A DNA stretch of 64,000 nucleotides from an uncultured Clostridia bacterium (GTDB lineage Bacteria; Bacillota; Clostridia; TANB77; CAG-508). Position 1 is the first letter of the stretch; every line of letters begins with the position of its first letter. A program made the translations under genes and the position numbers. Location: contig CALXVH010000003.1 of NCBI GenBank assembly GCA_944391965.1, positions 22,551-86,550 on the forward strand, given 5' to 3'. The notes below the pieces were generated by a model. It made no database searches. It saw only the letters and a program-made list of their open reading frames with translations, and was not told the DNA's origin. Of the stretch, positions 2,019 through 55,456 are shown piece after piece.

Positions 2019-2095
2019 GGACGTTCCCAGGGGTTGGGAACGTTTTTTCGGGATTTGGGAGGTTTCCCGGGATTTAGGGACGTTCCTTTTTTCCC
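2019..2095 (+). repeat. REP-like palindromic element cluster (3-4 units), locus R1, 3' of asd
   Basis: Units read GGACGTTCCC, GGGAACGTT, GGGATTTGGGAGGTTTCCC and GGGATTTAGGGACGTTCCTTTTTTCCC. They match the family seen at 11 other loci. Confidence 0.85.
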
Positions 2096-2116
2096 TTCCA
2101 AATTTTTTTAGTGCTA

Positions 2117-2155
2117 AAAATAATCGCAAAACATATTTGCGATTATTTTTTCTTT
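2117..2155. terminator. hairpin terminator overlapping the 3' end of the DtxR-family gene
   Basis: AAAATAATCGCAAA / TTTGCGATTATTTT 14-bp stem with a T-run. Confidence 0.6.
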
Positions 2156-2589
2156 TTTAACTTTATACAATTTTGGCATCTTTCATTTTCTGGACTATAA
2201 TTACATTTTAATTCATCAACTTTTATAATACTTTTTATGTAATCAGAAAATTTATTTACAGTATCTTCAGAAATAGCATGTTTCATTTTCTTAGCTTCTT
2301 CTTCTGCTGTTTCGTTATTAACATTTAAAATTTGAATTAAAAAAGCTTTTAAAACATTATGCTTTTTAATAATGTTAGTTGCTTCTTCTTTACCCTTTTC
2401 TGTTAATTTTATCTCTCCATATGTTTCATAATCCACAAGTTCTAGCTCTTTTAAAGATTTTAGTGCCCTATTTACACTTGCTTTACTAACTTGTAAATAG
2501 TCTGCAATGTCTGTAACTCTTGCTTCATTTTTATGTAATATTAATATATATATTGATTTTAAATAATCTTCTTGAGACGCAGTCATCAT
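2143..2589 (-). CDS. DtxR/MntR-family metal-dependent transcriptional regulator
   Basis: It has the N-terminal wHTH QEDYLKSIY...VSKASVNRALKSL and the family helix pattern. The tail is Cys-rich (CNYSPENERCQNC). Confidence 0.8.
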   Translation of the reverse strand: MMTASQEDYLKSIYILILHKNEARVTDIADYLQVSKASVNRALKSLKELELVDYETYGEIKLTEKGKEEATNIIKKHNVLKAFLIQILNVNNETAEEEAKKMKHAISEDTVNKFSDYIKSIIKVDELKCNYSPENERCQNCIKLKKKK

Positions 2590-2738
2590 TCTCCTCCTTT
2601 TATCTAGTATTAATTATATAGTATTTTTTAGATATTTTCCAGAAATTATTTATTTTTTATAAATTATATCATATAATAACATAGAAAATAGCTACATATA
2701 ATTATATATGCTAAAAAATCTCTATAGGAGATGTTATT

Positions 2739-3623
2739 ATGAAAAAAATTATTTTTAAAGGTTGTGGTACTGCCATCTCCACACCATTTACAAATGATGG
2801 CGTAAATTTTGAGGAGTTTGGAAAATTAATAGAATTCCAAATTTCAGAAGGTGTTGATAGTATTATAGTATGTGGTACTACTGGCGAATCTTCTACAATG
2901 ACAGAGAAAGAGAAAAAAGATACCATTAAATATGCTATAGATAAAGTTAATGGTAGAATTCCTGTAATTGCTGGAACAGGTTCAAATAATACTGCTTCTG
3001 CAATAGAAATGTCAAAATACGCAGAATCTGTTGGTGCAGATGCTTTATTAGTTGTAACACCATATTATAATAAAACAACTCAAGCAGGTTTAGTAGAACA
3101 TTATAAAGCAATAGCAAACTCTACTTCTTTACCTATAATCGTATATAGCGTATCTAGTAGAACTGGTGTAAATATTACTCCAGAAACTTGTTTAGAACTT
3201 TCTAAAATTCCAAATATCGTGGCTGTAAAAGAAGCTAGTGGTAATATCTCACAAGTTGCTAAAATTGCAGCACTATGTAAAGATAATTTACATATCTATT
3301 CTGGAAATGATGACCAAATCGTTCCAATTTTATCTTTAGGTGGACTTGGTGTTATATCTGTTCTTTCAAATGTTGCACCAAAATATACACATGATATGGT
3401 TCAGAATTTCTTTGATGGAAATATTACAGAAGCTACACAAATGCAATTAGACGCAATAGATTTAGTAGGAAGTTTATTCTGTGAGGTAAACCCTATACCT
3501 GTAAAAGAGGCTTTAAATATGATGGGATATAATTATGGAGTTCCAAGACTTCCACTAGTTAGATTATCTGAAAAAAATCAAGAAAAATTAAGAACTTCTT
3601 TAAAAACTTTTGGATTAATTTAA
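2739..3623 (+). CDS. dapA: 4-hydroxy-tetrahydrodipicolinate synthase
   Basis: 294 aa with the GTTGES motif, YYNKT and the Schiff-base lysine context VAVKEASG. Confidence 0.93.
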   Translation: MKKIIFKGCGTAISTPFTNDGVNFEEFGKLIEFQISEGVDSIIVCGTTGESSTMTEKEKKDTIKYAIDKVNGRIPVIAGTGSNNTASAIEMSKYAESVGADALLVVTPYYNKTTQAGLVEHYKAIANSTSLPIIVYSVSSRTGVNITPETCLELSKIPNIVAVKEASGNISQVAKIAALCKDNLHIYSGNDDQIVPILSLGGLGVISVLSNVAPKYTHDMVQNFFDGNITEATQMQLDAIDLVGSLFCEVNPIPVKEALNMMGYNYGVPRLPLVRLSEKNQEKLRTSLKTFGLI

Positions 3624-3709
3624 TTGTTAAGATTTAATTAACTTTATTCACATAATATACCTCCCATGATATAATATATATAGGAATAAAAAATATGGGA
3701 TGTGAATAA

Positions 3710-4252
3710 ATGTTTTTTAAAAAATTTAAAAATGAAGAAAATTATTTAGAATTTAAAAATATAATAAATGATATTCGCTTACACGAAAAGGTAAAAGAAA
3801 TGAACAATTATATGCAACATTCTAGCACGTCATGTTATAACCACTGCTTGCATGTTGCATATTACACTTATTTAGTATGTAAAAAATTTAAATTAGATTA
3901 TTTTTCAGCAGCTCGTGCTGCTATGCTTCACGATTTCTTTTTATATGATTGGCATGAGCACAGAAAGGTTAATTCATTTAAAGAACTACACGCATTTTCT
4001 CATCCTAAAATCGCTTTAGAAAATTCTTTAAAAAATTTCACTTTAAATGATTTAGAAAAAGATGTAATAGTAAAACATATGTGGCCTTTAACTATAAGAT
4101 TGCCTAAATATAGAGAAAGTTATATTGTTACATTTGTAGATAAATATTGTGCTACAGTTGAATTTTTTAAATACTTAAATAAGAAATACAAGTTAAGAAT
4201 GATATATAGATATGCTTATATCTTTTTAACAATCTTTTTTGTAAGATTTTAA
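3710..4252 (+). CDS. small HD-superfamily phosphohydrolase
   Basis: The H..H and HD motif (HCLHVAYY...AAMLHDFFLYDW) are present. It lies between dapA and dapB. Confidence 0.6.
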   Translation: MFFKKFKNEENYLEFKNIINDIRLHEKVKEMNNYMQHSSTSCYNHCLHVAYYTYLVCKKFKLDYFSAARAAMLHDFFLYDWHEHRKVNSFKELHAFSHPKIALENSLKNFTLNDLEKDVIVKHMWPLTIRLPKYRESYIVTFVDKYCATVEFFKYLNKKYKLRMIYRYAYIFLTIFFVRF

Positions 4253-4345
4253 TTTGTTTTATCATTTTACAAATAGTCACAATATAATTATTACTTACAT
4301 AAGGAAATTTAATTATCTTTAAGCGATATGGAAAGGATCTAAAAA

Positions 4346-5098
4346 ATGAAAGTATTAATAAATGGAATAAATGGTAAAATGGGACAAGAAGTTGCAAATG
4401 TAATAGATAATGATAAAGATATTTTACTTCTTGGTGGTGTTGATAAAGAAAACACTGGAATTTATACATACCCAGTTTATACAAATACTTCAAACATAGA
4501 AGAAAAACCAGATGTTATAATTGATTTTTCTGTTCCAGTAGCTACTCTAAATATCTTAAAATATGCTAAGGAAAATCATGTTCCTATTGTTATTGCAACA
4601 ACTGGATTTACAGAAGAACAATTAAATGAAATAGAAGCTTACTCAAAAGATATTCCTATTTTTAAATCTGCTAATATGTCATATGATATAAATTTAATGG
4701 CAAAAATTGTAGCATCTTTAGCTAAAGAATTACCAGATACTGATATAGAAATTATAGAAACACATCATAATAGAAAAATAGATAGTCCAAGTGGAACAGC
4801 TTTATTTTTAGCAGATAGCATTAATGAAGCAAAAGACAATAAGATGGTTTATGAATTTGACAGACATAATAAACATGAAAAAAGAAATAAATTAGAAATT
4901 GGATTCTCTTCTATTAGAGGTGGAAATATCGTAGGTGAACATACAGTACAATTCTTTGGTGAGCATGAAACATTAGAAATAACACATAAATGTTATTCTA
5001 GAACTGTTTTTGCAAATGGCGCTGTTATGGCTGCTAAATACATAGTTAATAAAGATAATGGAATGTATAATATGAATGATTTAATTAATAATAAATAA
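4346..5098 (+). CDS. dapB: 4-hydroxy-tetrahydrodipicolinate reductase
   Basis: It has the N-terminal GINGKMG dinucleotide fold and the signature ETHHNRKIDSPSGTA. Confidence 0.92.
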   Translation: MKVLINGINGKMGQEVANVIDNDKDILLLGGVDKENTGIYTYPVYTNTSNIEEKPDVIIDFSVPVATLNILKYAKENHVPIVIATTGFTEEQLNEIEAYSKDIPIFKSANMSYDINLMAKIVASLAKELPDTDIEIIETHHNRKIDSPSGTALFLADSINEAKDNKMVYEFDRHNKHEKRNKLEIGFSSIRGGNIVGEHTVQFFGEHETLEITHKCYSRTVFANGAVMAAKYIVNKDNGMYNMNDLINNK

Positions 5099-5140
5099 AA
5101 ACAGCTCGTGCTTTGTTATAAAAGCACGAGCTGTTTTTAT
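5097..5140. terminator. bidirectional rho-independent terminator after dapB
   Basis: AAAACAGCTCGTGCTT / AAGCACGAGCTGTTTT 16-bp stem flanked by A/T runs. Confidence 0.85.
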
Positions 5141-5173
5141 TGCATAGAAAAAATCTTAGATTTTAACTTTTGC

Positions 5174-5620
5174 TTACATTACACCAACTCTGTAAAAACT
5201 GTCTCCAACTTTAAAGCCAGCATCGTTGGTTTCCGAAAGTTTCGTTTTCAACACTTGAACCCTTTCTTCTGATATGCAGACAATTGAAACTTCTTCGTCA
5301 CCTACATTTGTACAGTCTGCTTTATATTTCACAAACATAGGCCATGTGGAAATAGTACTATTTGTACTCTTTGGCATTGCAGCACAAAACATACAACCTT
5401 TTTCTTTTATGGTTGAATCGGTCTCCGGCATTTCTGCAAAAGATTCGATGTCATAAACCACATCCTTTGATAGTTCAAACTTGTTCTTATTTAGGATCCC
5501 ATATTCGCATATTGTGTCGTCTTCCACATCTGCAACAATAATTACAAAATGTGGATTCTCATCCTCTTGCATTCTCCGTCCATAAAGGTCGAAAATCTTA
5601 CAGTTTTTAAGTTTTCTCAT
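5174..5620 (-). CDS. hypothetical protein (island 1, gene A)
   Basis: 148-aa ORF with RBS AAAGGAG. It is GC-richer than its neighbours. The N-terminus LKNCKIFDLYGR...FVIIV is paralogous to the N-terminus of ORF 6472..6987. Confidence 0.7.
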   Translation of the reverse strand: MRKLKNCKIFDLYGRRMQEDENPHFVIIVADVEDDTICEYGILNKNKFELSKDVVYDIESFAEMPETDSTIKEKGCMFCAAMPKSTNSTISTWPMFVKYKADCTNVGDEEVSIVCISEERVQVLKTKLSETNDAGFKVGDSFYRVGVM

Positions 5621-5693
5621 GTTGTTTCTCCTTTCTTAGTTCCTCGCTACATTTAGCAAGTTTGCATCTTCTTTGTACATTTTTTGCAGTACA

Positions 5694-5722
5694 ATTTTAG
5701 CACATATTTACTTAAATTTCAA
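5694..5722 (-). promoter_or_regulatory. sigma-A type promoter for gene A
   Basis: On the minus strand, TTGAAA, a 17-nt spacer, then TAAAAT with an upstream TG (TGCTAAAAT). The predicted 5' UTR is about 75 nt. Confidence 0.5.
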
Positions 5723-5785
5723 ATATTGAATAAGTCATGAATTGTAATATCATATTAACTAAATATATTTTATACTTTACTTTAA

Positions 5786-6471: not shown

Positions 6472-6987
6472 TTACTCATCATATTTTGATGATAATTCAT
6501 AGAATTCATGCTCTCGGTAAATAAAACCTTTATCTTTTACATTTTCCAGTTTTACATGGATTTTAAAAATTGGTGAACATGGTTCTAATAATACTCCAGC
6601 TATTCTAATAATCTTTTCTTTTTCTTCCGGATGCTTCATTACATAGTAAACCAGTCTTGCCCAATCAACAAATGCTTCTTCGATTTCTTCACCAATTGCA
6701 GAATAAAAAGTAAATTTTCTCAGCCTTATAATACCAAAATTTAATGCTTCAATTTTAGCTAATGATGAGATTGTATACTCTTCTTCTAAGAAGTCGTCTT
6801 CATCTGAAAATCGTGTTTGAAAGATTCTTGTTTTTGGAAAATATAATCCTTCCCTATAAATTATATCTTCCGATTCATTCTTGCCTACAACTATAATAGG
6901 CATTATTTCTTCAGTTTGTAGTCTACCTAAAATCCGTCCTTCCTTGTTGAATATTTTGCAATTTTTTAATTCTCCTTTTTTCTCCAT
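6472..6987 (-). CDS. hypothetical protein (island 1, gene C)
   Basis: 171-aa ORF with N-terminus LKNCKIFNKEGR...PIIVV, similar to gene A. Confidence 0.7.
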   Translation of the reverse strand: MEKKGELKNCKIFNKEGRILGRLQTEEIMPIIVVGKNESEDIIYREGLYFPKTRIFQTRFSDEDDFLEEEYTISSLAKIEALNFGIIRLRKFTFYSAIGEEIEEAFVDWARLVYYVMKHPEEKEKIIRIAGVLLEPCSPIFKIHVKLENVKDKGFIYREHEFYELSSKYDE

Positions 6988-7054
6988 ACTGTTCCTTTCT
7001 GATGCTCATTACATTTGATGAGTCTTACACTAACTTCAACTTTGCTACACATAA

Positions 7055-7083
7055 ATTTTAGCATATTTTGTTTTTCTTTGCAA
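7055..7083 (-). promoter_or_regulatory. sigma-A type promoter for genes C-B
   Basis: On the minus strand, TTGCAA, a 17-nt spacer, then TAAAAT (ATATGCTAAAAT). The architecture is the same as the gene A promoter. Confidence 0.5.
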
Positions 7084-7138
7084 ACTTATGTATACCTAAC
7101 GTATTAATTTAATTCCTCCTTTATGCATCCAAAAAAAA

Positions 7139-7194
7139 GGGATTTAAGGAACGTCCCCAAATCCCGAATTTTTTCGCAGGACGCCTCAAATCCC
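7139..7194 (-). repeat. REP-like element doublet, locus R2, 3' of clpC
   Basis: GGGATTTAAGGAACGTCCCCAAATCCC plus a degenerate unit AGGACGCCTCAAATCCC. Confidence 0.85.
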
Positions 7195-12051: not shown

Positions 12052-13257
12052 ATGGACTTAAAATTTAGTAGTGTTGCTGCTACCCCATCTAACCCTAATT
12101 GGAATAATTTAATTTCAAGAAAAGACGAGTTGTATAAAAAAACAAATGATGTTCGCTCTGAATTTGAAAGAGATTATGATAGAATTTTATATTGTAATGC
12201 TTATAGAAGGTTAAAGCATAAAACACAAGTATTCTTTTTACCCAAAAATGATCATATTTGTACACGTATAGAACATGTAAATAATGTTGATGCAACAAGT
12301 TATACTATTGCAAAAGCATTAGGATTAAATACGACATTAACAAGAGCTATTTCTATATCTCACGATATTGGTCATAGTCCTTTTGGTCATAAAGGAGAAC
12401 AAATTCTAAACCAAATATGTTTAGAACATAACTTAGAACCTTTTTGGCATGAAAGAAATGGTTTGAATTTTGTTGATAATATAGAATTGCTAACAAATGT
12501 TAATAACGAAGAAAAAAATCTAAACTTAACATATGCAGTAAGAGATGGTATTATATCTCACTGTGGCGAAATAGATGAAATATCTCTAAAACCTAGGACT
12601 GAATTAATCGATTTAGAAAAAGATTATATTAAACTTAACCAATATTCTCCATATACTTGGGAGGGTTGTGTTGTTAAAATTTCTGATAAAATCTCATATC
12701 TAGGTAGAGATATAGAAGATGCCATTTCTATGGGAATACTAGATAGTAATTTAAATGAATTATATGATTTAATAGAACAACCTAGAAGCGCCAATTTAAA
12801 TAATACAAATATTATTGGTGATTTAATAGCTGATTTATGTGCGAATTCATCTGTAGATGAAGGGTTAAAGTTCTCTGATTCTACTTTTGAGAAGATAAAA
12901 AGATTGAAAGCATTTAATTATAAAAATATATATAAGCATAAGTGCATGAAACCTTCAGAAAGATATTTTAGTCTTGTGCTAAATGAAATATTTAATACAT
13001 TAAATGAGTGTTATGATGGTATGAATACTCTAGAGAAATTAAATAGTGAAAAACCTTTTTATACTAAAGTGATAGGTACTTTTATAAAGTGGATTTTTTG
13101 CTATTGGAATATAGAAACAGATAGAACTCATTTAAAAAATAAAATTTTATATGATATGAATAATATTAAAGATTATCAAACAGCTATTATTACATATATA
13201 TCTGGTATGACAGATAGTTATGCAATAGAAACATATAATGACATTGTAAAATATTAA
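12052..13257 (+). CDS. dGTPase-like HD-domain triphosphohydrolase
   Basis: It has the motifs YRRLKHKTQVF, HDIGHSPFGH and the C-terminal GMTDSYA. Confidence 0.8.
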   Translation: MDLKFSSVAATPSNPNWNNLISRKDELYKKTNDVRSEFERDYDRILYCNAYRRLKHKTQVFFLPKNDHICTRIEHVNNVDATSYTIAKALGLNTTLTRAISISHDIGHSPFGHKGEQILNQICLEHNLEPFWHERNGLNFVDNIELLTNVNNEEKNLNLTYAVRDGIISHCGEIDEISLKPRTELIDLEKDYIKLNQYSPYTWEGCVVKISDKISYLGRDIEDAISMGILDSNLNELYDLIEQPRSANLNNTNIIGDLIADLCANSSVDEGLKFSDSTFEKIKRLKAFNYKNIYKHKCMKPSERYFSLVLNEIFNTLNECYDGMNTLEKLNSEKPFYTKVIGTFIKWIFCYWNIETDRTHLKNKILYDMNNIKDYQTAIITYISGMTDSYAIETYNDIVKY

Positions 13258-13267
13258 TCATATATAA

Positions 13268-13297
13268 TAGGACATTTCTTAAAATGTTCTATTTTTA
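13268..13297 (+). terminator. terminator after the dGTPase-like gene
   Basis: TAGGACATTT / AAATGTTCTA stem followed by a T-run. Confidence 0.6.
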
Positions 13298-13389
13298 TGT
13301 AAATTATGATATAATATAATTGTTACACATAAATATTCAGCAAAATTAAAAGCTGAAACACTAAAGAAAAAAAGAAAAGGAGAATGTGT

Positions 13390-14028
13390 ATGGCAGTTTT
13401 ATTATTAGTAGTAATGTTGATTCTCAATTTCGTGATCTCTTGGTCTAATGCTCGGTATGTGGGCTATTATTGGACCGAATCAAAAGAAATTGGCGGTAGC
13501 TTCAGACGATATGTAGTCGCCGGCTATGTGATGGCAATAGCAGGATTTACTATGGTATATGCTTATCTTTTGCTTATCATAAGTCCTGTATTCTTGCAGA
13601 TGGCAGACATAGACCCTGAAGTAATTTTACAGATTGAACAGCTTTCAGCAGACTTAATTTATCTGTTTACAGTTGTTACAATTGTTCCCACAGGTTTTTA
13701 TATTTGGATTAGATCGTTAAAAACCGCCTGGGAAGAAAGAACTCTGTCATCCATTTTGACGGGAGGTTGGAACACTTATGCCCAGCTACATAATACAATA
13801 AGTGTAGCTCGGAATGCTCCAAGTGCCCTTGGTAGAGTTGCAAAAGCGCTCTTTGGTGGAAAAGGTAAGAAAAAGGATAATACGATTGTAATACTGGTTG
13901 CAATCTTTATTCTTATAGTTGCCATTTTCGGGGGTTATTTTACAGCCTCTGCCATAATGAAAAAAGCAGACAGAGAATACGATATGTTCGCAGATCTGCA
14001 AAGAAAACATCCAGAAATCGAACAATAG
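13390..14028 (+). CDS. hypothetical polytopic membrane protein (island 2)
   Basis: ORF 13384 trimmed to the second ATG, which is 7 nt from GGAGA. It has 4-5 hydrophobic segments. A 60-nt hand count gives about 45% GC. Confidence 0.65.
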   Translation: MAVLLLVVMLILNFVISWSNARYVGYYWTESKEIGGSFRRYVVAGYVMAIAGFTMVYAYLLLIISPVFLQMADIDPEVILQIEQLSADLIYLFTVVTIVPTGFYIWIRSLKTAWEERTLSSILTGGWNTYAQLHNTISVARNAPSALGRVAKALFGGKGKKKDNTIVILVAIFILIVAIFGGYFTASAIMKKADREYDMFADLQRKHPEIEQ

Positions 14029-14041
14029 CATACACAAAAAA

Positions 14042-14079
14042 CTTGGCGGTAGAAAAAACATCTACTGCCAAGTTTTTTT
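14042..14079. terminator. bidirectional terminator between convergent genes
   Basis: CTTGGCGGTAG / CTACTGCCAAG stem flanked by A6 and T7. Confidence 0.8.
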
Positions 14080-21422: not shown

Positions 21423-21563
21423 ACCTATTTCCTCCTTTTCTAACGTTTTTATTTTACCATTATTTTGCTTGTCTTTCAAGTAAAAAATGTGGATTTATTA
21501 AATTGCAGAAATGAAATTTAAATCCCTTTCTACTAATAAAACCACATTTATTTTTTGCCATAT

Positions 21564-23157: not shown

Positions 23158-23511
23158 TTAACCTCCTAATTTGACTGAATCTTTAACATTTACATAGTAT
23201 TCTTTAATAATTGCTTCAAGTTCTTCCAGCGTTTTTGGATTTTTTCTCTCAACAAACGCATATAAGAAGTAGTTGAATGTTCTGATTAATTCCATCTTCT
23301 CCTGCATACTTCCCTCAAAATAAAGCAACTTTTCTGTAGCTTGGACTACATACTTTTGAACAAGGTCATTGATAAATTTATAATCTTGTTCCTTCGCCCA
23401 GCCCTGTTCGACTGCCTCGACTCCTTCATCTCCAATTTCCTCATATACTGTGGGTAAGCATACCCTCAGCAAGAATATCTTTTCGCTATTCTTTTTGTTA
23501 AACTCTCTCAT
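23158..23511 (-). CDS. hypothetical protein (island 3)
   Basis: 117-aa ORF with RBS GGAGG, visibly GC-richer than the neighbouring genes. Confidence 0.6.
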   Translation of the reverse strand: MREFNKKNSEKIFLLRVCLPTVYEEIGDEGVEAVEQGWAKEQDYKFINDLVQKYVVQATEKLLYFEGSMQEKMELIRTFNYFLYAFVERKNPKTLEELEAIIKEYYVNVKDSVKLGG

Positions 23512-23586
23512 TCTTTTGAGCCTCCTTCTAAAAATTTTTTCTGCATTTTATTATACCATACTTAACATAATTTTCCAAGTATCAAA

Positions 23587-23637
23587 TAGGGATTTAAACA
23601 ACGTCCCTAAATCCCCAGGGGATGTCCCAAATACCTA
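23587..23637 (-). repeat. REP-like element doublet, locus R3
   Basis: TAGGGATTTAAACAACGTCCCTAAATCCCC plus AGGGGATGTCCCAAATACCTA. Confidence 0.8.
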
Positions 23638-23721: not shown

Positions 23722-23742
23722 GTGTTACATATTAATATAAAC

Positions 23743-23965
23743 GTTTGATAAGAGAATAGTAACATATTTAATTTTTTAAGAGAGTTTACGGTTGGTGTAA
23801 GTAAATAAAATTTATATGTGAATCTACTCTTAGATGTTTTTAGTGAAAACTAAACCGTAAGTTAGGCGGTTACCCTACTAATTGAGTGTATTATTTTTAT
23901 AATAACTTAAGGTGGTACCGCGGATTATATTCGTCCTTATATTTTATATAAGGACGATTTTTGTT
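23743..23965 (+). promoter_or_regulatory. T-box riboswitch leader, serine specifier (UCU)
   Basis: The stem I base is TGATAAGAGAATAGTA and the AGAGA bulge is present. The specifier loop is GAA-TCT-A at 23820-23826. The T-box sequence is AACTTAAGGTGGTACCGCGG at 23904-23923. The terminator TCGTCCTTAT...ATAAGGACGATTTTT lies at 23931-23965. Confidence 0.88.
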
Positions 23966-25586: not shown

Positions 25587-25590
25587 AAAA

Positions 25591-25621
25591 TAGGGATTGG
25601 GGGACGTTCCTTAAATCCCTA
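25591..25621 (+). repeat. REP-like element, locus R4, 3' of serS
   Basis: TAGGGATTGGGGGACGTTCCTTAAATCCCTA. Confidence 0.9.
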
Positions 25622-25686
25622 TTTGAAAAATCAAAACCAAGAAATTTATAAAAATTTTCTTGGTTTTGTTATTTATACTTAATTAT

Positions 25687-26655: not shown

Positions 26656-26722
26656 TTCCCCCTTTTTGTATAAAATATCATATAAGAAAAAATTATTCAA
26701 CAATTTAAAATAACATTATTTA

Positions 26723-26751
26723 TTGAGTTTTTATTAAGCTTGTGATATAAT
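26723..26751 (+). promoter_or_regulatory. promoter of the purA-like gene
   Basis: TTGAGT, a 17-nt spacer, then an extended -10 TGTGATATAAT. Confidence 0.55.
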
Positions 26752-26812
26752 TCAAGTGTAAGTTTTTATGGTAACTCTTGTCTCTTAATGTTATTCAGAA
26801 GGAGGAAAAAAA

Positions 26813-28159
26813 ATGAATAACTGTGTAACTGTAGTTGTAGGATGTAAATGGGGTGACGAAGGGAAAGGCAAAATCGCTTCACTTACATCCAAAAATGCAA
26901 AATTTGTGATTCGGGCTACCGGAGGTAGTAACGCGGGACACACCGTTATTTATAACGGTAAAAAAGTGGCATTACACCTCATTCCTGGTGGAATTACTTA
27001 TCCAAATAAGATTGGTATCATCGGTCCTGGAACAGTAATCGAACCAAAAGTGTTATTAGACGAGCTTGCTTTGCTAAAAGATTCTGGCGTATCTGACATA
27101 GAAGATCGCTTAAAAATTAGCGGCAGAGCTCATGTAGTTTTTCCATGGCACAAGGACTTGGATGAATTGCATGAACAGGTGAAAGAACATCCAATCGGAA
27201 CAACAAAACGTGGTATCGGTCCAACCTATTCTGATAAGGCTACTCGTAAAGGTCTTCGTATTTATGACCTACTTCTTCCTGTAGATGAGCTGGAAAAAAA
27301 GATTAACGAAGATGTTTTTCTTCATAATCAGTTATTCCTTGCCAACAACATGGAAGAGTGTGTTGTAGATTCGAAAAAATTTGCTATGACTTTTGCTGAA
27401 TATGGCCAGTTACTACGACCTTACGTTACAGATGTACTTCCAATCTATATGGAAACCATTAAAAATAATGATGGAATTGTTATTGAAGGAGCTCAAGCCT
27501 TCAGATTGGATAATGATGATGGGGAATATCCTGATGTAACAGCTTCACATCCTGTAACAAGTGGTTGTCTTTTAGGTGCGGGGCTTCCTGCTCAAGCTTT
27601 AAAATTGGTAATTGGAGTCGACAAAGCCTACAATACACGTGTTGGCAATGGTCCATTTCCAACAGAACTGCCATCTTCTATTGACGAAAATGGCAATCTA
27701 ATTCCTAACCAGCCTAAGTTAGAAGGCGACATTATTAGGGAACTAGGATACGAGTATGGTGCAACTACCGGACGTCCACGTAGATGTGGTTGGATGGATG
27801 CAGTAATGTTGCGCACTGCCAAATATGGCTGTGGAATAGATGTATTATGCATCAATCATTTGGACACTCTTGGTAAAATTGGTATGGAGCTTGGTTATGT
27901 AAAGGTATGTGTTGCCTATTCTTATATGGGCAAAATTATAAATTATTACCCTGACAATACTAGGCTTACACATACAATTCCAGAACCTGTTTATGAAACA
28001 ATTGAAGGTGGTTGGAAAATTGATGAATCGATGAGAACATTTGATTCATTACCGGAAAAAGCAAAACAATTTATTGAGATTGTTGAACGCATTTCGGAAA
28101 TCCCTGTAAAATTTGTTGGAACTGGTCCGGCAAATGACGATATTATCGAAAAAAAGTAA
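26813..28159 (+). CDS. adenylosuccinate synthetase family protein, divergent (island 4)
   Basis: PurA motifs GDEGKGK, NAGHT, GTTKRGIGP, GAQ and ATTGRPRR are present. The canonical D-x-D-HGTYP-[FY]-VTSS block reads DNDDGEYPDVTAS. There is an insertion of about 13 aa before GATTGR. A 60-nt sample is about 48% GC. Confidence 0.75.
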   Translation: MNNCVTVVVGCKWGDEGKGKIASLTSKNAKFVIRATGGSNAGHTVIYNGKKVALHLIPGGITYPNKIGIIGPGTVIEPKVLLDELALLKDSGVSDIEDRLKISGRAHVVFPWHKDLDELHEQVKEHPIGTTKRGIGPTYSDKATRKGLRIYDLLLPVDELEKKINEDVFLHNQLFLANNMEECVVDSKKFAMTFAEYGQLLRPYVTDVLPIYMETIKNNDGIVIEGAQAFRLDNDDGEYPDVTASHPVTSGCLLGAGLPAQALKLVIGVDKAYNTRVGNGPFPTELPSSIDENGNLIPNQPKLEGDIIRELGYEYGATTGRPRRCGWMDAVMLRTAKYGCGIDVLCINHLDTLGKIGMELGYVKVCVAYSYMGKIINYYPDNTRLTHTIPEPVYETIEGGWKIDESMRTFDSLPEKAKQFIEIVERISEIPVKFVGTGPANDDIIEKK

Positions 28160-28208
28160 CATATAACTTGTATTGCAGTTAAAAAAAAACTTACAAGGAG
28201 TTACAAAG

Positions 28209-28247
28209 AAGAGAGCATTTTCAGTAATGAGGATTGCTCTCTTTTTA
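28209..28247 (+). terminator. terminator after the purA-like gene
   Basis: AAGAGAGCA / TGCTCTCTT stem followed by a T-run. Confidence 0.6.
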
Positions 28248-28328
28248 TTACAGTATATATCTTCAGTCATTGTATTTTTTAGAATTTTATGTTAAAATAT
28301 ATCAATATTAATATTAAGGAGAAAATTT

Positions 28329-30009: not shown

Positions 30010-30182
30010 TTGCTCTCCTTTCGAAACCTAGTTAACGAGTTACCAGTTTTTTTGCTGCGCATCATCCTTTCTTATAATAAAATATTATTTTAAGCAAGCC
30101 TCTACCTTTGATGTTATGTGTATTTTACCACATTTTTATCATATTTCAAGTTAATAATACTTATCTATCATCATATAAAAAA

Positions 30183-30209
30183 AGAGATTTAAGGATTCCC
30201 CCTAAATCT
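30183..30209 (-). repeat. degenerate REP-like element, locus R5, 3' of the DUF951 gene
   Basis: GAGATTTAAGGATTCCCCCTAAATCTC. Confidence 0.6.
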
Positions 30210-30384
30210 CGGTTATTTTTTTAGTTATCATTTTTAAAGCTTTTTGTCTTTCTACTAATATAAAATGTCCACATCCTTCGCATTTTAAACCGAAGTCTAC
30301 ACCAACTCTTGTTATCTTCCATAATTTACTTCCACATGGATGTGGCTTTTTTGTTCTTACTATATCCCCTACATTATATTCCAT
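30202..30384 (-). CDS. DUF951-like small protein
   Basis: 60 aa with VGDIVRTKKPHPCGS..W.I.R.G.D...C..C. Confidence 0.6.
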   Translation of the reverse strand: MEYNVGDIVRTKKPHPCGSKLWKITRVGVDFGLKCEGCGHFILVERQKALKMITKKITEI

Positions 30385-32053: not shown

Positions 32054-32210
32054 AGTATCTCCTAACCTTTTTATCGTACTATATGTACTGTTTATACACT
32101 TTTTTATTATAGCAAGCTTAAGTTAATTATGTCAAACTCTTTTGTGAAAAATCTGTGTTTTTATTGATTTTAACATACACTTAATATACAATATATGCAG
32201 TATTTTATAA

Positions 32211-32241
32211 TAGGGATTTAAGGAACGTCCCCAAATCCCTA
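32211..32241 (-). repeat. REP-like element, locus R6, between divergent rsmA and the PBP gene
   Basis: TAGGGATTTAAGGAACGTCCCCAAATCCCTA. This is the exact reverse complement of the consensus form. Confidence 0.9.
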
Positions 32242-32276
32242 TCCAAATCCTTTTAATATAAATTTAGGTGATGCAG

Positions 32277-37990: not shown

Positions 37991-38041
37991 TGATTTTTTT
38001 AGCCAACTAGATAAAATCTAGTTGGCTATATTGTTCATACA

Positions 38042-38093
38042 AGAGGGAAAAAAGGAACGTCCCCAAATCCCTGGGAATGTCCCCATATCCCTA
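38042..38093 (-). repeat. REP-like element doublet, locus R7, 3' of smc
   Basis: AGAGGGAAAAAAGGAACGTCCCCAAATCCCT plus GGGAATGTCCCCATATCCCTA. Confidence 0.85.
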
Positions 38094-42722: not shown

Positions 42723-43661
42723 ATGTTTGAGGAAAAATTTGATTTTTATGATAAAACAACTTTAAAATCATATAATTTAGATATCACTATGAGATATCAG
42801 TTAACTATGCTAGATAGTTTAGACCCCTTTACAAGAATTCATAGTGAAAATGTTGCAAGTATTACATGTAGGTTATGCGAATATTTACGTTGCGATAAGA
42901 ATTTTACTGCTTATTGTACTATTTGTGCATATTTACATGATATTGGTAAAATGTTTATTCCTGCAAAAATACTAAATAAACCTGACAAATTAACAGACGA
43001 AGAATTTTCTATAATGAAAACACATACACTTATAGGCTATAAAATGTGTATGGATGATATTAAATTAAGACCTTATGCACTAGGTCCAAAATATCATCAT
43101 GAAACTTTGGATGGTACAGGATATCCAGAAGGATTAGTTGGAAATTTAATTCCATATGAAGATCAAATTATAAAGGTTGCAGATGACTATGATGCATTAG
43201 TTACTAAAAGACAATATAAAACTCATATTCATATATCAGATACTTTAAAAGATTTAATTAAAGATACTGAACCAAATGTAAAAGTGGCAGCTCTTGATAA
43301 TGCAGCTCAAGGTGTAAAACTTGGAAAACTTAATAAAAAAGTTGTAAAGGCTTTATTTAAAGTTGTTATTGATGATACTTACTATGAAATTAGTTGTGTT
43401 ACAGGCTATGTTGACTATTTAAAAGATCAAATCAAAAGAATTGAACAAATCTTAGAATATGAAGAAAAAATGGATAAAGCTCATTCTGAAAAAAAGAAGA
43501 ATTACTATAAAGAAGGAATGGAAATGCTGTTTCAGGAAGGCGAAAATTTTGAAAATATTCATAAGATATATCATGAATATCAAACAGCATATTTAACAAG
43601 AAAAGAAATTGTAGAAAAATTATATGAAGAAATTAGAATCATAAAAAAATTACAAGTATAG
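42723..43661 (+). CDS. HD-GYP domain protein, paralogue 2
   Basis: Motifs HSENVA, YLHDIGK and HHETLDGTGYPEG are present. It is collinear with paralogue 1 from FDFYDKT to the C-terminal coiled coil. Confidence 0.8.
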   Translation: MFEEKFDFYDKTTLKSYNLDITMRYQLTMLDSLDPFTRIHSENVASITCRLCEYLRCDKNFTAYCTICAYLHDIGKMFIPAKILNKPDKLTDEEFSIMKTHTLIGYKMCMDDIKLRPYALGPKYHHETLDGTGYPEGLVGNLIPYEDQIIKVADDYDALVTKRQYKTHIHISDTLKDLIKDTEPNVKVAALDNAAQGVKLGKLNKKVVKALFKVVIDDTYYEISCVTGYVDYLKDQIKRIEQILEYEEKMDKAHSEKKKNYYKEGMEMLFQEGENFENIHKIYHEYQTAYLTRKEIVEKLYEEIRIIKKLQV

Positions 43662-43731
43662 GGATTTTGGGATGTTTCTTCGGTATTTGAGGGCATTCCT
43701 TCGGGATTTAGGGACGTTCCTTAAATCCCTA
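43659..43731 (+). repeat. REP-like element cluster (3 units), locus R8
   Basis: TAGGGATTTTGGGATGTTTCTTCGG, then TATTTGAGGGCATTCCTTCG, then GGATTTAGGGACGTTCCTTAAATCCCTA. Confidence 0.85.
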
Positions 43732-43750
43732 TTTTATTTGAATTATAATT

Positions 43751-43795
43751 CAAAAAAAGAACGTTCTAACCTTCTCCTCTGGAGAAAATCAGAAC
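43751..43795 (-). terminator. terminator after mazF
   Basis: The minus strand reads GTTCTGATTTTCTCC-AGA-GGAGAAGGTTAGAAC, then GTTCTTTTTTT. Confidence 0.65.
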
Positions 43796-43807
43796 GTCAC
43801 ATTATCA

Positions 43808-51408: not shown

Positions 51409-51420
51409 TAAAGATTCGAA

Positions 51421-51449
51421 GGGATTCGGGGACGTTCCTTTTTTCCCTA
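51421..51449 (+). repeat. REP-like element, locus R9, inside the operon between the gamma and delta genes
   Basis: GGGATTCGGGGACGTTCCTTTTTTCCCTA. Confidence 0.85.
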
Positions 51450-51516
51450 TATTAAAATTTTTAATATATTATAAAGAATATTCCTAAAACTTAATTTTTT
51501 AGAAAGGAGTTTAAAA

Positions 51517-51822
51517 ATGGATAAAACAAATATAAATAACTCAACTCCAATGGAAGATATGACAATTGGAGGAACAATATATAATGCTGGAAATTCTCGT
51601 GAAGTAAAAACAGGAGATTGGAGAAGCATGAAACCTATATTTGATAGTGAAAAATGTAAACAATGTGGATTATGTTTCCCTGTTTGTCCAGAAAACGCAA
51701 TTCCAGTTGGAAAAGATATAAAAAGAACAGATTTTAATTATGATTATTGTAAAGGATGTGGCGTTTGTGCCAAAGTTTGTCCTTTCAAAGCAATCTCAAT
51801 GGTAGAGGAGGGAATTGAATAA
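51517..51822 (+). CDS. porD: 2-oxoacid:ferredoxin oxidoreductase delta subunit (2x[4Fe-4S])
   Basis: It has CKQCGLCFPVCP and CKGCGVCAKVCP. Confidence 0.85.
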   Translation: MDKTNINNSTPMEDMTIGGTIYNAGNSREVKTGDWRSMKPIFDSEKCKQCGLCFPVCPENAIPVGKDIKRTDFNYDYCKGCGVCAKVCPFKAISMVEEGIE

Positions 51823-53018
51823 TGAGTATAAGAGAACGTTTAAGTGGTAATGAAGCTGCAGCTACAGCTATGAAGCAAATAAATCCAGATGTTGTTGCTG
51901 CCTTCCCTATTACACCATCAACAGAAATACCACAATATTTTTCTACTTTTGTTAGCAATGGTGCTGTTGATACAGAATTCGTTGCAGTAGAAAGTGAGCA
52001 TAGTGCAATGAGTGCTTGTGTTGGTGCAGAAGCTGCAGGTGCTAGGGCTATGACAGCTACATCTTCAAACGGATTATCTTTCATGTGGGAAATGATATAT
52101 ATAGCTTCATCATTACGTTTACCTATAGTAATGTCTCTTGTTAATAGAGCAGTATCTGGACCATTAAATATCCACAATGATCACTCTGATGCAATGGGTG
52201 TTCGTGATGCTGGATGGATAATGTTATTTTCAGAAAGTAATCAAGAAGCATATGATAACTTATTAATGGCTCATAGAATTGCAGAACACAAAGATGTTTT
52301 ATTACCATTAATGGTATGCCAAGATGGATTTATTACTTCACATTCTATAGAAACAATAGATTTAGTAGAAGATGATAAGGTAAAAGAATTTGTTGGTACA
52401 TATAAACCTGAACATTACTTGTTAAATAGTAAAGAACCTATTTCTATTGGACCTTTAGATTTACAAGGATATTTATTCGAACACAAAGCTCAACAAGCAC
52501 AAGCTATGAAAAATGCTAAAAAAGTTATTTTAGAAGTAGCAGAAGAATTTGAAAAATTAACAGGTAGAAAATATGGTTTATTCGAAGAATACAAATTAGA
52601 AGATGCAGATGTTGCTATTGTTTGTATGAACTCTACAGCAGGTACTGCAAAATTCGTAGTAGATGATTTACGTAGTAAAGGTGTTAAAGCTGGACTATTA
52701 AAGGTTCGTGTATTTAGACCATTCCCTGCAGAAGAAATCGCTAAAGCTTTAGCAAATGTAAAAGCAGTTGCAGTATTAGACAAAGCAGATTCTTTAAATG
52801 CTGCTGGTGGTGCATTATTTACAGATGTTACATCTGGTATGTTTGTAAATGATATTCATGTACCTACAGTAAGTTATATTTATGGAATTGGTGGTAGAGA
52901 TACAAAATCTGATGACATCGAAAAAGTTTATAATGATTTATTAGAAATCGTAGAAACAGGAAAAATAAATAATCCTTATAGACATTTAGGATTAAGAACG
53001 AAAGGAGCTGAAAAATAA
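51822..53018 (+). CDS. porA: 2-oxoacid:ferredoxin oxidoreductase alpha subunit
   Basis: 398 aa with a family-typical N-terminus (GNEAAA...AFPITPSTEI). Confidence 0.88.
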   Translation: MSIRERLSGNEAAATAMKQINPDVVAAFPITPSTEIPQYFSTFVSNGAVDTEFVAVESEHSAMSACVGAEAAGARAMTATSSNGLSFMWEMIYIASSLRLPIVMSLVNRAVSGPLNIHNDHSDAMGVRDAGWIMLFSESNQEAYDNLLMAHRIAEHKDVLLPLMVCQDGFITSHSIETIDLVEDDKVKEFVGTYKPEHYLLNSKEPISIGPLDLQGYLFEHKAQQAQAMKNAKKVILEVAEEFEKLTGRKYGLFEEYKLEDADVAIVCMNSTAGTAKFVVDDLRSKGVKAGLLKVRVFRPFPAEEIAKALANVKAVAVLDKADSLNAAGGALFTDVTSGMFVNDIHVPTVSYIYGIGGRDTKSDDIEKVYNDLLEIVETGKINNPYRHLGLRTKGAEK

Positions 53019-53971
53019 TGCCATATAATTTAAAAGAAGTAATCGCTACAAAACCTTCAAGATTTTCAGAAGGACATAAAATGTGTGCAGGTTGTGGAGC
53101 TCCACCAGTTGCTAGAATGGTTTTACGTGCATTAAAACCAGAAGATCATGCTGTAATTGCTACAGCTACTGGATGTATGGAAGTTTCTACATTTACATAC
53201 CCATATACATCTTGGACAGATTCATTTATTCATACAGCTTTCGAAAATGCTGGTAGTACATTATCTGGTGTTGAAGCTGCATACAAATCTTTAAAGAAAC
53301 AAGGAAAATTGCAAGAAGATACACATACAAAATTCATCGCATTTGGTGGAGATGGTGGAACTTATGATATAGGTTTACAATCACTTTCAGGTGCTATGGA
53401 AAGAGGACATGATATGGTTTATGTATGTTATGATAATGGTGCATATATGAACACAGGTATTCAACGTTCTTCTGCAACACCAAAATTTGCAGATACAACT
53501 ACATCACCTGCTGGAACAGTTATTCCAGGTAAAGCACAAGAAAGAAAAGACCTAACAGAAATAATGGTATCACATCATTTACCATATGTTGCACAAACTC
53601 TTGCTATGACTAATTTTAAAGATTTATATGAAAAAGCAGAAAAAGCAATATATACAGAAGGACCAACATTCTTAAATGTAATGGCTCCTTGCCCAAGAGG
53701 ATGGGGATATGCGACAGAAGACTTAATGCAAATTAACAAATTAGCTGCAGATACATGTTATTGGCCATTATATGAAGTTGTAGATGGTAAATATAAAATA
53801 ACATATAAACCAGCAAAAAAACTTCCAGTAGAAGAATTCTTAAAACCACAAAAACGTTTTAGACATATGTTTAAACCAGGAAATGAATGGATGATAGAAG
53901 AATTCCAAAGAATAGTTGATAAAAGATGGAATGAATTATTACAATTAGAAGAAATGACTAATAAAGACTAA
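53018..53971 (+). CDS. porB: 2-oxoacid:ferredoxin oxidoreductase beta subunit (TPP-binding)
   Basis: It has CAGCG and GGDGGTYDIG. Confidence 0.88.
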   Translation: MPYNLKEVIATKPSRFSEGHKMCAGCGAPPVARMVLRALKPEDHAVIATATGCMEVSTFTYPYTSWTDSFIHTAFENAGSTLSGVEAAYKSLKKQGKLQEDTHTKFIAFGGDGGTYDIGLQSLSGAMERGHDMVYVCYDNGAYMNTGIQRSSATPKFADTTTSPAGTVIPGKAQERKDLTEIMVSHHLPYVAQTLAMTNFKDLYEKAEKAIYTEGPTFLNVMAPCPRGWGYATEDLMQINKLAADTCYWPLYEVVDGKYKITYKPAKKLPVEEFLKPQKRFRHMFKPGNEWMIEEFQRIVDKRWNELLQLEEMTNKD

Positions 53972-53980
53972 AATAGTGAA

Positions 53981-54013
53981 AGAGGGATTTGGGGACGTTC
54001 CTTTTTTCCCTCT
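53981..54013 (+). repeat. REP-like element, T-tract variant, locus R10, 3' of porB
   Basis: AGAGGGATTTGGGGACGTTCCTTTTTTCCCTCT followed by TTTTC. Confidence 0.9.
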
Positions 54014-54074
54014 TTTTCAATATACTTAAGTTACAAATCTATGATGATTTTATTCTTTTATAACTTAAATTTTT

Positions 54075-54108
54075 AAGAGTTAAGATTTTCTTTATCTTAA
54101 CTCTTTTT
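54075..54108. terminator. 12-bp hairpin terminator
   Basis: AAGAGTTAAGAT / ATCTTAACTCTT followed by a T-run. It overlaps the stop codon of the wHTH gene. Confidence 0.7.
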
Positions 54109-54420
54109 ATTTATATTATTATCTATAATTTCAAACCCTAATCTTGTTATTTTATAAACTGTAACTGTTTTTCCTGTGTATTTACATGTTTTTTTCGCAG
54201 TTGCTTCTACAAGGCCCATTTTTTCCAATTCTGTTAATCTTGGGGCTGTTGTATTACGTTCGTCAGTATTGGTTATTTTTTGCTCATATAGTTCAACAGC
54301 AATTTCTTTAGCAGTTTTATTTCCTAAGCACAAACTTTCTAATATTGGTTCATATCTTACTTTCCTATTTGGCTTAATTTCTTCGAAACTTTTTCTTCTT
54401 GTTAGCCAAGTTATTTTCAT
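54097..54420 (-). CDS. winged-helix DNA-binding protein
   Basis: Trimmed to MKITWLTRRK because the longer ORF (to 54471) reads through REP R11. The wHTH segment is AKEIAVELYE...TAPRLTELEKMGLV. Confidence 0.6.
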   Translation of the reverse strand: MKITWLTRRKSFEEIKPNRKVRYEPILESLCLGNKTAKEIAVELYEQKITNTDERNTTAPRLTELEKMGLVEATAKKTCKYTGKTVTVYKITRLGFEIIDNNINKKS

Positions 54421-54434
54421 TTGTATATCTCCTT

Positions 54435-54464
54435 TAGGGATTTGGGGACGTTCTTTTAATCCCA
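54435..54464 (+). repeat. REP-like element, locus R11, 3' flank of the Y1 transposase gene
   Basis: TAGGGATTTGGGGACGTTCTTTTAATCCCA. Confidence 0.9.
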
Positions 54465-54480
54465 CTTTCACTATTATTTT

Positions 54481-55266
54481 TTATAAATTCTTATTTTTTA
54501 GTTTTTTCTTTATTAACGAAATTCTATTTTTACCTATTCCTAATATAGCACAAATATTTTTATTACTTATTTTATATTTTACATTTAAATAATTTTTAAA
54601 TTCTATTATTAAGCTATTAGATTTTCTAATTTCAGTTATAGATGTATTATACTTATTACAAAATTCCTTAATAATTATTTCTACACTTTGTCTTTCAATT
54701 TTTTCCAATCTTTCATCTTCATCAATAAAATGATATTCTATTCTTTCATCTATATCATTAGGTGCATATTTAAAATTTTTTCCAAAAATCGAACATAAAA
54801 TATCATTACTCCTTTCTGCCTCTATAAAATCTTTACATGAAGAATATTGATAAAAATGACCTCTTTCTATTATTCCAGCTTTCACTGGGTTTTCATGAAT
54901 ATATTTTATACAAGAAAGCAAATGAATGCCATTTTCTATTATTTCAGAATGATATCTATTGAAAAAAACATATCCAGATCTCTCTTCTTGTAAGTTATAA
55001 AATATAGCATATGCTGTATTTATTTTTCGCATAAGTGTTTCAGCTTTATTTATTTCTTCGATATGTATCAATAAATGTACATGATTATCCATAACGCAAT
55101 ATGCTATTAAATCTATCCCCTCTAACTCTTTAATACATTTATTCAATAAAAAAATATACTTTTCTTTGTATTCTTTTTTATAAAAAATAAATTCACTCTT
55201 TATACCTTTTGCAACAATATGTACAAATTTAGATACTATATTTTTTCTGGCAATTCTAGACATCAA
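54481..55266 (-). CDS. Y1 (HUH) transposase-like protein, REP-associated (RAYT-like)
   Basis: The HUH motif lies in CVMDNHVHLLIH and the Tyr helix in CIKYIHENPVKAG. The C-terminal extension has an HTH-like segment ICAILGIGKNRISLIKK. Confidence 0.8.
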   Translation of the reverse strand: MMSRIARKNIVSKFVHIVAKGIKSEFIFYKKEYKEKYIFLLNKCIKELEGIDLIAYCVMDNHVHLLIHIEEINKAETLMRKINTAYAIFYNLQEERSGYVFFNRYHSEIIENGIHLLSCIKYIHENPVKAGIIERGHFYQYSSCKDFIEAERSNDILCSIFGKNFKYAPNDIDERIEYHFIDEDERLEKIERQSVEIIIKEFCNKYNTSITEIRKSNSLIIEFKNYLNVKYKISNKNICAILGIGKNRISLIKKKLKNKNL

Positions 55267-55425
55267 CCCTCCTTTTATTTTACTAATTTGGATATAATTT
55301 TGGAATTAATAATAAATTAGATAATAATAAAAAAAATTAATTTTTAATTATAGGAAAAAAATGATTATAAAAATTTTAAAGATATAAAAATACTTAATTA
55401 TAATAGAACGTTCTTTAAAATAATT

Positions 55426-55456
55426 TAGGGATTTAAAGAACGTCCCCAAATCCCTA
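55426..55456 (-). repeat. REP-like element, locus R12, 5' flank of the Y1 transposase gene
   Basis: TAGGGATTTAAAGAACGTCCCCAAATCCCTA. The adjacent partial inverted copy GAACGTTCTTTAAA at 55406-55419 can pair with 55432-55445. Confidence 0.9.

Follow-up and report, generated by a model that had tools for sequence, protein, structure and literature searches.

The window analysed here is a 64,000-nt stretch of DNA from an uncultured Clostridia bacterium (contig CALXVH010000003.1, positions 22,551 to 86,550), which carries a dispersed family of hairpin-forming repeats of about 31 nt together with a gene, bracketed by two of these repeats in inverted orientation, whose predicted product is a Y1 HUH tyrosine transposase. 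Very probably, the repeats constitute a hairpin family of the repetitive extragenic palindromic (REP) type, and the enzyme encoded in the same window, from the helix-turn-helix (HTH)-bearing branch of the REP-associated tyrosine transposase (RAYT) or TIRYT class, is their cognate partner. The window has a G+C content of ~28%, and the same region is found in human-gut metagenome assemblies at 95-99% identity, one of the contigs being 1.8 Mb long. Many samples contain the species, with the serS protein present in 97 blocks.

Twelve loci of one repeat family

An initial annotation had described a palindromic element dispersed over 12 intergenic loci. We built a covariance model from 58 distinct copies, some from the window and some from loci of other genomes; run on the window with filters off, it recovers exactly the same 12 loci, at 25-61 bits and E <= 4e-6. 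At each locus the model scores far better on one strand than on the other (e.g., 61 versus 22 bits), and the resulting orientations are six + and six -. A fixed-spacing alignment set (A3) was used, and an earlier DNA alignment (A2), which left TTAAAATCCC variants ungapped, was set aside. The claimed excess over chance is borne out as well. Specifically, the 31-mer consensus TAGGGATTTGGGGACGTTCCTTAAATCCCTA has 5 matches at <=3 mismatches in the window versus 0.00 in 100 shuffles, and the 10-mer core GGGACGTTCC, with <=1 mismatch allowed, occurs 12 times versus 0.19 expected. Because the sequences flanking the copies are unrelated in a sequence logo, the copies are not one duplicated segment, a possibility that had been raised at the outset. 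Parsing of the loci yields about 20 units, close to the ~19 first counted, with four at 2017-2095, three at 43659-43731 and doublets at 7137-7194, 23587-23637 and 38042-38093. The loci and the bracketed gene are listed below, where A-form and T-form denote two versions of the 3' arm (see the next section) and ORF an open reading frame.

2017-2095, + strand: array of about four head-to-tail units, the last T-form, starting ~5 nt past the asd stop; model match to the last unit at 2064-2103 (+), 25 bits
7137-7194, - strand: two units directly past the clpC stop, the terminal unit followed by T8; model match 7131-7170, 58.9 bits
23587-23637, - strand: doublet within a divergent spacer, immediately upstream of a promoter-like site for ORF 23158-23511; model match 23581-23620 (-), 50.2 bits
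25591-25621, + strand: single unit, 4 nt past the serS stop; model match 25588-25627, 56.4 bits
30183-30209, - strand: degenerate unit, 3 nt past the stop of a DUF951 gene, then T7; model match 30176-30215, 28.8 bits
32211-32241, - strand: single unit with the exact consensus, in the divergent spacer between ksgA and a penicillin-binding protein (PBP) gene; model match 32205-32244, 61.2 bits
38042-38093, - strand: two units, 4 nt past the stop of a 1184-aa ORF, the terminal one T-form; model match 38037-38076, 33 bits
43659-43731, + strand: three-unit head-to-tail array, whose first TAG is the stop of ORF 42723-43661; model match 43698-43737, 59 bits
51419-51449, + strand: single T-form unit, ~10 nt past the stop of the gamma gene of 2-oxoacid:ferredoxin oxidoreductase (POR); model match 51416-51455, 32.7 bits
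53981-54013, + strand: single T-form unit, 9 nt past the stop of a thiamine pyrophosphate (TPP)-enzyme gene; model match 53979-54018, 39.1 bits
54435-54464, + strand: unit 3' of the transposase gene, between the transposase stop and the start of a small winged-helix gene; model match 54432-54471, 46.6 bits
54481-55263, - strand: putative RAYT/TIRYT-type Y1 HUH tyrosine transposase gene, 260 aa from an ATG, with a TTG 3 nt upstream
about 55400-55420: partial inverted copy beside unit 55426-55456
55426-55456, - strand: unit 5' of the transposase gene and co-oriented with it, 1 mismatch to the consensus; model match 55420-55459, 55.3 bits

The early statement that all copies are intergenic essentially holds, except that a unit of the 43659 array supplies the stop codon of the ORF ahead of it; this array as a whole folds at -31.2 kcal/mol. 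Two copies of the core that had been considered isolated turn out to be parts of larger structures, since the one at 55405-55414 belongs to the partial inverted copy next to unit 55426-55456, and the one at 43758-43767 forms one of the arms of a terminator hairpin of 18 bp. The arms of this terminator (43760-43798, -) contain ACGTTCT/AGAACGT, and its orthologue in locus L092 looks like two inverted units in decay, suggesting that old repeats gave rise to the terminator. A weak model match at 21482-21531 (-), with 16 bits, keeps GGGATTT...AAATCC arms around an unrelated interior and could be either a degenerate 13th locus or a chance hairpin. No hairpin unit lies in the window between 55460 and 64000. 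At the Rfam gathering score, the window contains no known family that covers the repeat, the sole match being a T-box leader (23736-23941, +, 112.7 bits) upstream of the DUF1653-serS genes, and a literature search with the core sequence returned unrelated eukaryotic or primer matches only.

Hairpin fold and arrangement of the units

An exact-pattern scan over one genome per species found at least 111 stretches with the repeat. Among the matches listed, gut metagenome-assembled genomes (MAGs) dominate, deposited as 'uncultured Clostridium sp.' or 'Clostridia bacterium' (UMGS1570, CAG:354 and others), and ~20 singleton matches in unrelated phyla of high GC content were discounted as chance. The unit statistics that follow are drawn from the window and 90 low-GC related MAG loci, 729 kb in total, with 192 units in 132 spacers; the 8-kb loci are biased towards holding at least one unit.

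On the sense strand, TAGGGATTTGGGGACGTTCCTTAAATCCCTA, as RNA or single-stranded DNA, forms one uninterrupted stem of 14 bp that includes two G.U (G.T) pairs and is closed by a CGU loop, at -18.2 kcal/mol. On the antisense strand, the G.U pairs are lost and the fold acquires a two-tier shape, at -12.7 kcal/mol, so that the two-tier hairpin drawn originally describes the antisense strand but not the sense strand. The units share the invariant block GGGATTT-R-GGGACGTTCC, which is followed by TTAAA(A)TCCC in 106 of the 192 units, by TTTTTTCCC in 47 and directly by the next unit in 20. The 3' arm occurs in two forms, TTAAATCCC or TTTTTTCCC (106 versus 47 units), that differ by an AAA/TTT triple change which single substitutions do not explain. 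The forms swap at one orthologous site, 53981-54013, where locus L083 has the A-form and the window the T-form.

Neighbouring units in the same orientation (n = 38) are spaced with periods of 20-21 nt, comprising the 5' arm and apical block only, or of 31-36 nt, and the inverted neighbours (n = 14) all face each other 3' end to 3' end (14/14). Since neighbours are mostly head-to-tail, the clusters are not alternations of the bacterial interspersed mosaic element (BIME) kind. Of what was proposed at first, the dispersed palindromic family stands, its REP-like character strengthened by the bracketed RAYT-class gene described below, but the BIME-like clustering does not.

Within the family, only the outermost pair, 5-33, alternates, being AU in 20 copies and CG in 9, and a shuffle control is not decisive. 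Because the stem itself never varies, covariation within the family is nearly uninformative, and the evidence for the hairpin thus rests on the replacement of arms between families with pairing kept. The same outermost letters bear on a different explanation of the units, namely that they are miniature inverted-repeat elements belonging to a DDE transposon with TA target duplication. Many units do begin and end with TA, but the terminal T/A and C/G letters pair as an extension of the stem (pair 5-33) and form no direct repeats, the whole element measures only ~31 nt, and the window shows no DDE transposase with ends of this kind; we give a DDE origin next to no credence.

A transposase gene bracketed by inverted units

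Asking which genes have units on both sides singled out the gene at 54481-55263 (-), which the initial annotation had not listed; its orthologues in L083 and L104 likewise have units on both sides. Judged by its sequence, the encoded protein is assigned to the Y1 HUH tyrosine transposases of the RAYT class. It matches Pfam Y1_Tnp with 32.3 bits (cut-off 23) and the NCBIfam model REP_Tyr_transpos for REP-associated tyrosine transposases (NF047646) with 58.7 bits (E 6e-16), and a database search returned 265 relatives, all of ~255 aa with Y1_Tnp. In an alignment of 29 homologues with identities down to 34%, residues H61 and H63 (HUH), Y121, N125 and P126 are invariant, and Y-x3-NP (Y---NP) is the class-2 (TnpA-REP) signature (PMC6006769). 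A single-sequence search of the PDB gave nothing relevant. With a profile of the 29 sequences, the best PDB match is 4er8_A, the E. coli TnpA-REP bound to a REP hairpin (E 3.7e-4), in which Y115, the first Tyr of DYIYINPVK, aligns with Y121. The AlphaFold (AF2) model of the protein (pLDDT 84.8) likewise has 4er8_A as its top Foldseek match (E 9e-7, target TM 0.69), with the ISDra2 and IS608 transposases ranking behind it. Additionally, residues ~194-258 are helical in the model (pLDDT 80-93), and homologues score HTH_23, HTH_24, HTH_28 and similar domains in the C-terminal region, where the window protein aligns with them; the window protein itself has no Pfam HTH match. The homologue alignment and the structural model together predict a C-terminal HTH-like extension in the window protein.

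Units 55426-55456 (-) and 54435-54464 (+) bracket the gene in inverted orientation, which is the REPtron or TIRtron layout. The same bracket surrounds nine homologous genes (36-59% identity) in other gut MAGs, at loci L083, L104 and L118-L124, of which the last seven hold more distant transposase homologues and were taken with 10-kb flanks. The orientation of the bracket is constant across the 10 loci including the window, with the upstream unit in the gene's orientation and the downstream unit inverted. Between lineages, the stem arms differ (GGGATTT, TGAAATTT, TGACACATTT or GGTGTTTTT) and the apical GGGGAC(G/A) is kept, as seen in the hairpins of the following loci, given with the identity of their homologue to the window protein.

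L120, 54% identity: hairpin GGGGGATTTT...AAAATCCC
L119 and L122, 37 and 36% identity: hairpin TGAAATTT-AGGGACGCTCC-AAAAATTTCA
L123, 39% identity: hairpin TGACACATTT-GGGGACGGACTC-AAAATGTGTCA
L121, 36% identity: hairpin GGTGTTTTT-GGGGACACC-TTTCAAAAACACC

Each stem variant is dispersed in its own 20-kb locus, in up to 10 copies. Such wholesale replacement of the arms with pairing preserved provides the actual evidence for a hairpin. The replacement also speaks to the idea that the units are binding sites in double-stranded DNA, forming an operator or nucleoid-organising array for an HTH protein without any transposition, the candidate binder being either the transposase-like protein, through its C-terminal domain, or the small winged-helix protein encoded next to it. 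Such sites would account for the nearly palindromic core GGGACGTTCC, for an array period of 20-21 nt, which equals two helical turns, for the HTH domain fused to the enzyme and for the strong conservation of the units. However, the homologous cores are not palindromic (GGGGACACC, GGGGACGGACTC) and the hairpin is always kept by compensating arm replacement, the catalytic HUH and Tyr residues are invariant, and the units lie at gene 3' ends and not at promoters, and we consider double-stranded binding sites a highly improbable explanation.

The gene lies downstream of a small ferredoxin gene, and the order Fer4 - gene - POR/TPP operon (2-oxoacid:ferredoxin oxidoreductase) recurs in the window, L083, L104, L118, L120 and L124. 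This conserved neighbourhood, shared by homologues at 42-59% protein identity, fits vertical inheritance of a single locus, and the transposase has a domesticated look. An autonomous insertion sequence (IS) of the IS200/IS605 type, with the dispersed hairpins as miniature derivatives of its ends (PATE/MITE-like), would also have a Y1_Tnp domain and hairpins at both gene ends, and the structural similarity to IS608/ISDra2 TnpA ranks second. Nevertheless, the IS200 equivalog model gives only 16.5 bits against a cut-off of 55, and both the Y-x3-NP signature and the best match to 4ER8 point to a RAYT. Furthermore, the ends are identical and inverted instead of being distinct left and right ends, no tnpB neighbours the gene at the locus, a single copy of the gene was seen in the 64-kb window, and the homologues share the one neighbourhood described above. 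An IS200/IS605-type element is thus, in our judgement, a most unlikely source of the repeats.

Several other features adjoin the gene. Just upstream of unit 55426-55456, a 15-codon ferredoxin (4Fe-4S) remnant (..CCPVEAPEEE*) lies at ~55481-55528 (-). A complete ferredoxin gene (56 aa) occupies this position in L120 and L124, and the remnant may be a scar left by phage integration or deletion. Beside the transposase locus, a prophage-like block (56176-63956, -) encodes an endolysin amidase (phrog_3088, E 5e-80) and a tail-fibre protein (phrog_819, E 3e-54), and in L118 prophage tail and amidase genes are located on the same side of the homologous transposase gene. Directly downstream of the transposase, between two units, is the small winged-helix gene (54097-54420, -; phrog_1123, E 4e-15; weak PadR match), which L120, L083 and L057 share with the window and L118 and L124 lack.

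Units favour gene 3' ends, mostly in sense orientation

Only 12 of the 192 units lie under ORF calls, mostly at ORF ends. Units occupy 45% of convergent, 24% of tandem and 9% of divergent spacers in the 729 kb (convergent versus divergent, Fisher p 5e-6). The orientation bias that was initially suggested for checking is evident in convergent spacers, in which the unit nearest a stop codon has that gene's sense orientation in 29 of 31 cases (29:2). In tandem spacers, the median distance from the stop to the start of a sense unit is 16 nt, with 34 of 59 sense units starting within 20 nt, and antisense units are located in the middle of the spacer (median 70 nt). The window has eight sense loci behind intact genes, all of which begin <=12 nt past the stop. 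A bias with respect to the replication strand was rejected, as the loci divide into 6 + and 6 - and their orientation follows the local gene. Readings of the repeats as CRISPR, uptake-signal or KOPS-like sequences were also rejected, on spacing, density and orientation.

The placement raises the question of whether the units are merely intrinsic terminators or 3' stabiliser hairpins that resemble each other by selection or local duplication, with the transposase being incidental. Their position at gene 3' ends, in sense orientation and near stop codons, agrees with such a role, as do the G.U pairs, which favour the sense RNA, and the 4 of 12 loci that a consensus scan finds terminator-like with a T-run (7165-7139, 30210-30184, 43703-43729 and 55456-55426). 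By contrast, several of the other loci have a separate canonical terminator downstream (e.g., 2116-2150 and 38000-28), antisense units occur in about one third of spacers, near-identity over 18-31 nt extends to >100 unrelated loci and across species, and the inverted bracket round the transposase gene is present in 10 loci with matching stem swaps. As a full account of the family, a terminator or stabiliser role is very unlikely.

Conservation and turnover of the units

Terminal units are 90% identical between sister species, whereas the remaining sequence of these spacers reaches 58% (p 2e-18). Sister species (~91% identity) keep the elements at the same sites, with differences in unit number at 2019, 7139, 38042 and 43659; relative to the window, L023 has one unit fewer at 2017-2095 and a single unit at 7137-7194, and L092 has fewer units at 43659-43731. 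Among conspecific strains, two tandem units are found at 32211 versus one in the window (a 32-nt indel), and L001 and L002 carry an unrelated hairpin at 30183. Comparison of orthologous spacers had been suggested as a way to detect insertions. Between the window and strains or sister species, the search for filled versus empty sites revealed no clean insertion, only changes in unit number and a single replacement associated with a gene indel.

The only difference in the presence or absence of a unit that was seen concerns the sister species L033, which has a T-form unit in a 133-nt spacer (6931-7064); the window carries 810 nt with a 214-aa ORF in its place (13257-14066). A purA-bearing segment (26709-28265; purA 26813-28159) is present in the window and L004 and absent from the conspecific L001-L003 and L005.

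A probable REP/RAYT-type system and its proposed mechanism

Taken together, these findings very probably make the family a new member of the REP/RAYT kind, in an uncultured gut Firmicute, without GTAG and with head-to-tail arrays. We propose that the enzyme would recognise the folded hairpin in single-stranded DNA, with the apical GGGGAC(G/A) as the probable specificity determinant and the stem giving the shape, and that it would cut and rejoin DNA via its HUH/Tyr site, thereby seeding new copies. Arrays would then grow or shrink through slippage or recombination between direct units. Most of the copies that persist would be sense-oriented and lie immediately 3' of stop codons, where the sense transcript is predicted to form the more stable, G.U-containing hairpin and may serve as a 3'-end stabiliser or terminator. 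Both the transposase-driven spread and the RNA-level use of the repeats are what we infer from the layout and placement of the units. More tentatively, the HTH-bearing RAYT branch might maintain a true high-copy hairpin family in gut Firmicutes via the apical GGGGAC in place of a GTAG foot, and the host might have co-opted the sense copies within ~15 nt of stops for translation termination, mRNA 3'-end stability or transcription termination; we regard this wider proposal as possible but doubtful.

Several observations weigh against assigning the family to the REP/RAYT kind. With respect to the repeats, head-to-tail neighbours outnumber REPIN-type inverted doublets (38 versus 14), and the logo of the 192 units has no GTAG or GTGG at the hairpin foot, with T at -2 in 51-62%, A or C at -1 and no conserved G ahead of these positions. 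The sense bias is weak in tandem spacers (44 versus 30 spacers, p 0.13). Every comparable locus is shared with sister species at ~91% identity, with one possible exception, and as no clean filled-versus-empty site emerged, there is no evidence of recent mobility. With respect to the enzyme, its REP_Tyr_transpos score, 58.7 bits, falls short of the equivalog cut-off (80; the L104 homologue reaches 68.6), which makes the protein a divergent relative and not an equivalog. Its fit to TnpA-Y1 subclass 2.1 was judged by domain architecture and motif and not by the classifier of the study that defined the subclass, in which no REP-like sequences were found next to subclass 2.1 genes (PMC6006769). Finally, the counts of genes and units cover the window and the sampled loci.

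At this locus, an HTH-bearing RAYT enzyme is cleanly paired with a hairpin family that abounds in uncultured Firmicutes of the human gut. The natural stem-swap variants that retain the apical GGGGAC amount to a ready-made specificity experiment, and the tight sense placement after stops, together with the strong conservation of the units, makes a testable case for host use of repeats. The family can also confound the assembly and binning of MAGs, and it can serve as a lineage marker.

Comparison with known systems

To our knowledge, REP/RAYT systems have been studied almost entirely in Proteobacteria, and we know of no established repeat partner or role for the largest RAYT group, which has a C-terminal DNA-binding domain. 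Our literature searches found no description of this repeat family, nor of a Firmicute family of such kind.

The combination of REPs with RAYTs in the REPtron layout, and the single-copy, vertically inherited nature of RAYTs, are established (PMC5581495, PMC3733652). Like the classical systems, such as the E. coli REP/BIME sequences with TnpA-REP and the Pseudomonas REPINs, the present one comprises short, extragenic, high-copy palindromes and a Y1 HUH enzyme with Y-x3-NP, whose gene is bracketed by inverted repeats and behaves as if vertically inherited; its repeats also favour gene 3' ends, and their G.U pairs suggest transcription. Unlike the classical systems, it has no GTAG foot, the conserved motif being apical, and its units form head-to-tail arrays with periods of 20-21 or 31-36 nt, where the classical units form inverted doublets or alternating BIMEs. 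An additional HTH domain is predicted for the enzyme, whose score does not reach the NCBIfam equivalog cut-off, and the host is a 28% GC Firmicute and not a proteobacterium. With the IS200/IS605 elements (IS608, ISDra2), the system shares the HUH/Tyr fold and the expected recognition of single-stranded DNA hairpins, and it differs from them in an enzyme that is not an IS200 equivalog, in having identical, inverted ends and no tnpB, and in the syntenic and apparently single gene.

The TIRYTs offer a further comparison. Di Nocera et al. (2013) described TIRtrons as RAYT-like (TIRYT) genes flanked by inverted repeats that share GGGGWSAS and are not GTAG REPs, with some of the repeats forming moderately abundant families (PMC3733652). 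Quentin et al. (2018) equated TIRYT with the HTH-bearing subclass 2.1 of TnpA-Y1, corresponding to RAYT group 1 (PMC6006769), and Bertels et al. (2017) reported group 1 RAYTs in Clostridia with flanking 16-mers of low abundance, ~12 occurrences (PMC5581495). As in TIRYT, subclass 2.1 and group 1, the enzyme here is longer than E. coli TnpA-REP and is predicted to have a C-terminal HTH-type extension, which in that branch is of the Bac_DnaA_C, HTH_23 or HTH_28 type. The inverted flanking repeats share the GGGG-W-S motif of TIRtrons, here as GGGGAC; over the full GGGGWSAS, the window's GGGGACGT matches at 6 of 8 positions, and GGGGACAC of L121 and the GGGACAC(TCC) of some second units match fully. 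In TIRtrons, too, the flanking repeats can form dispersed families in dimers or clusters. What sets the present family apart from TIRYT and group 1, besides its head-to-tail arrays and Firmicute host, is that its repeats are compact, self-complementary 31-nt hairpins, present at ~1 locus per 5 kb.

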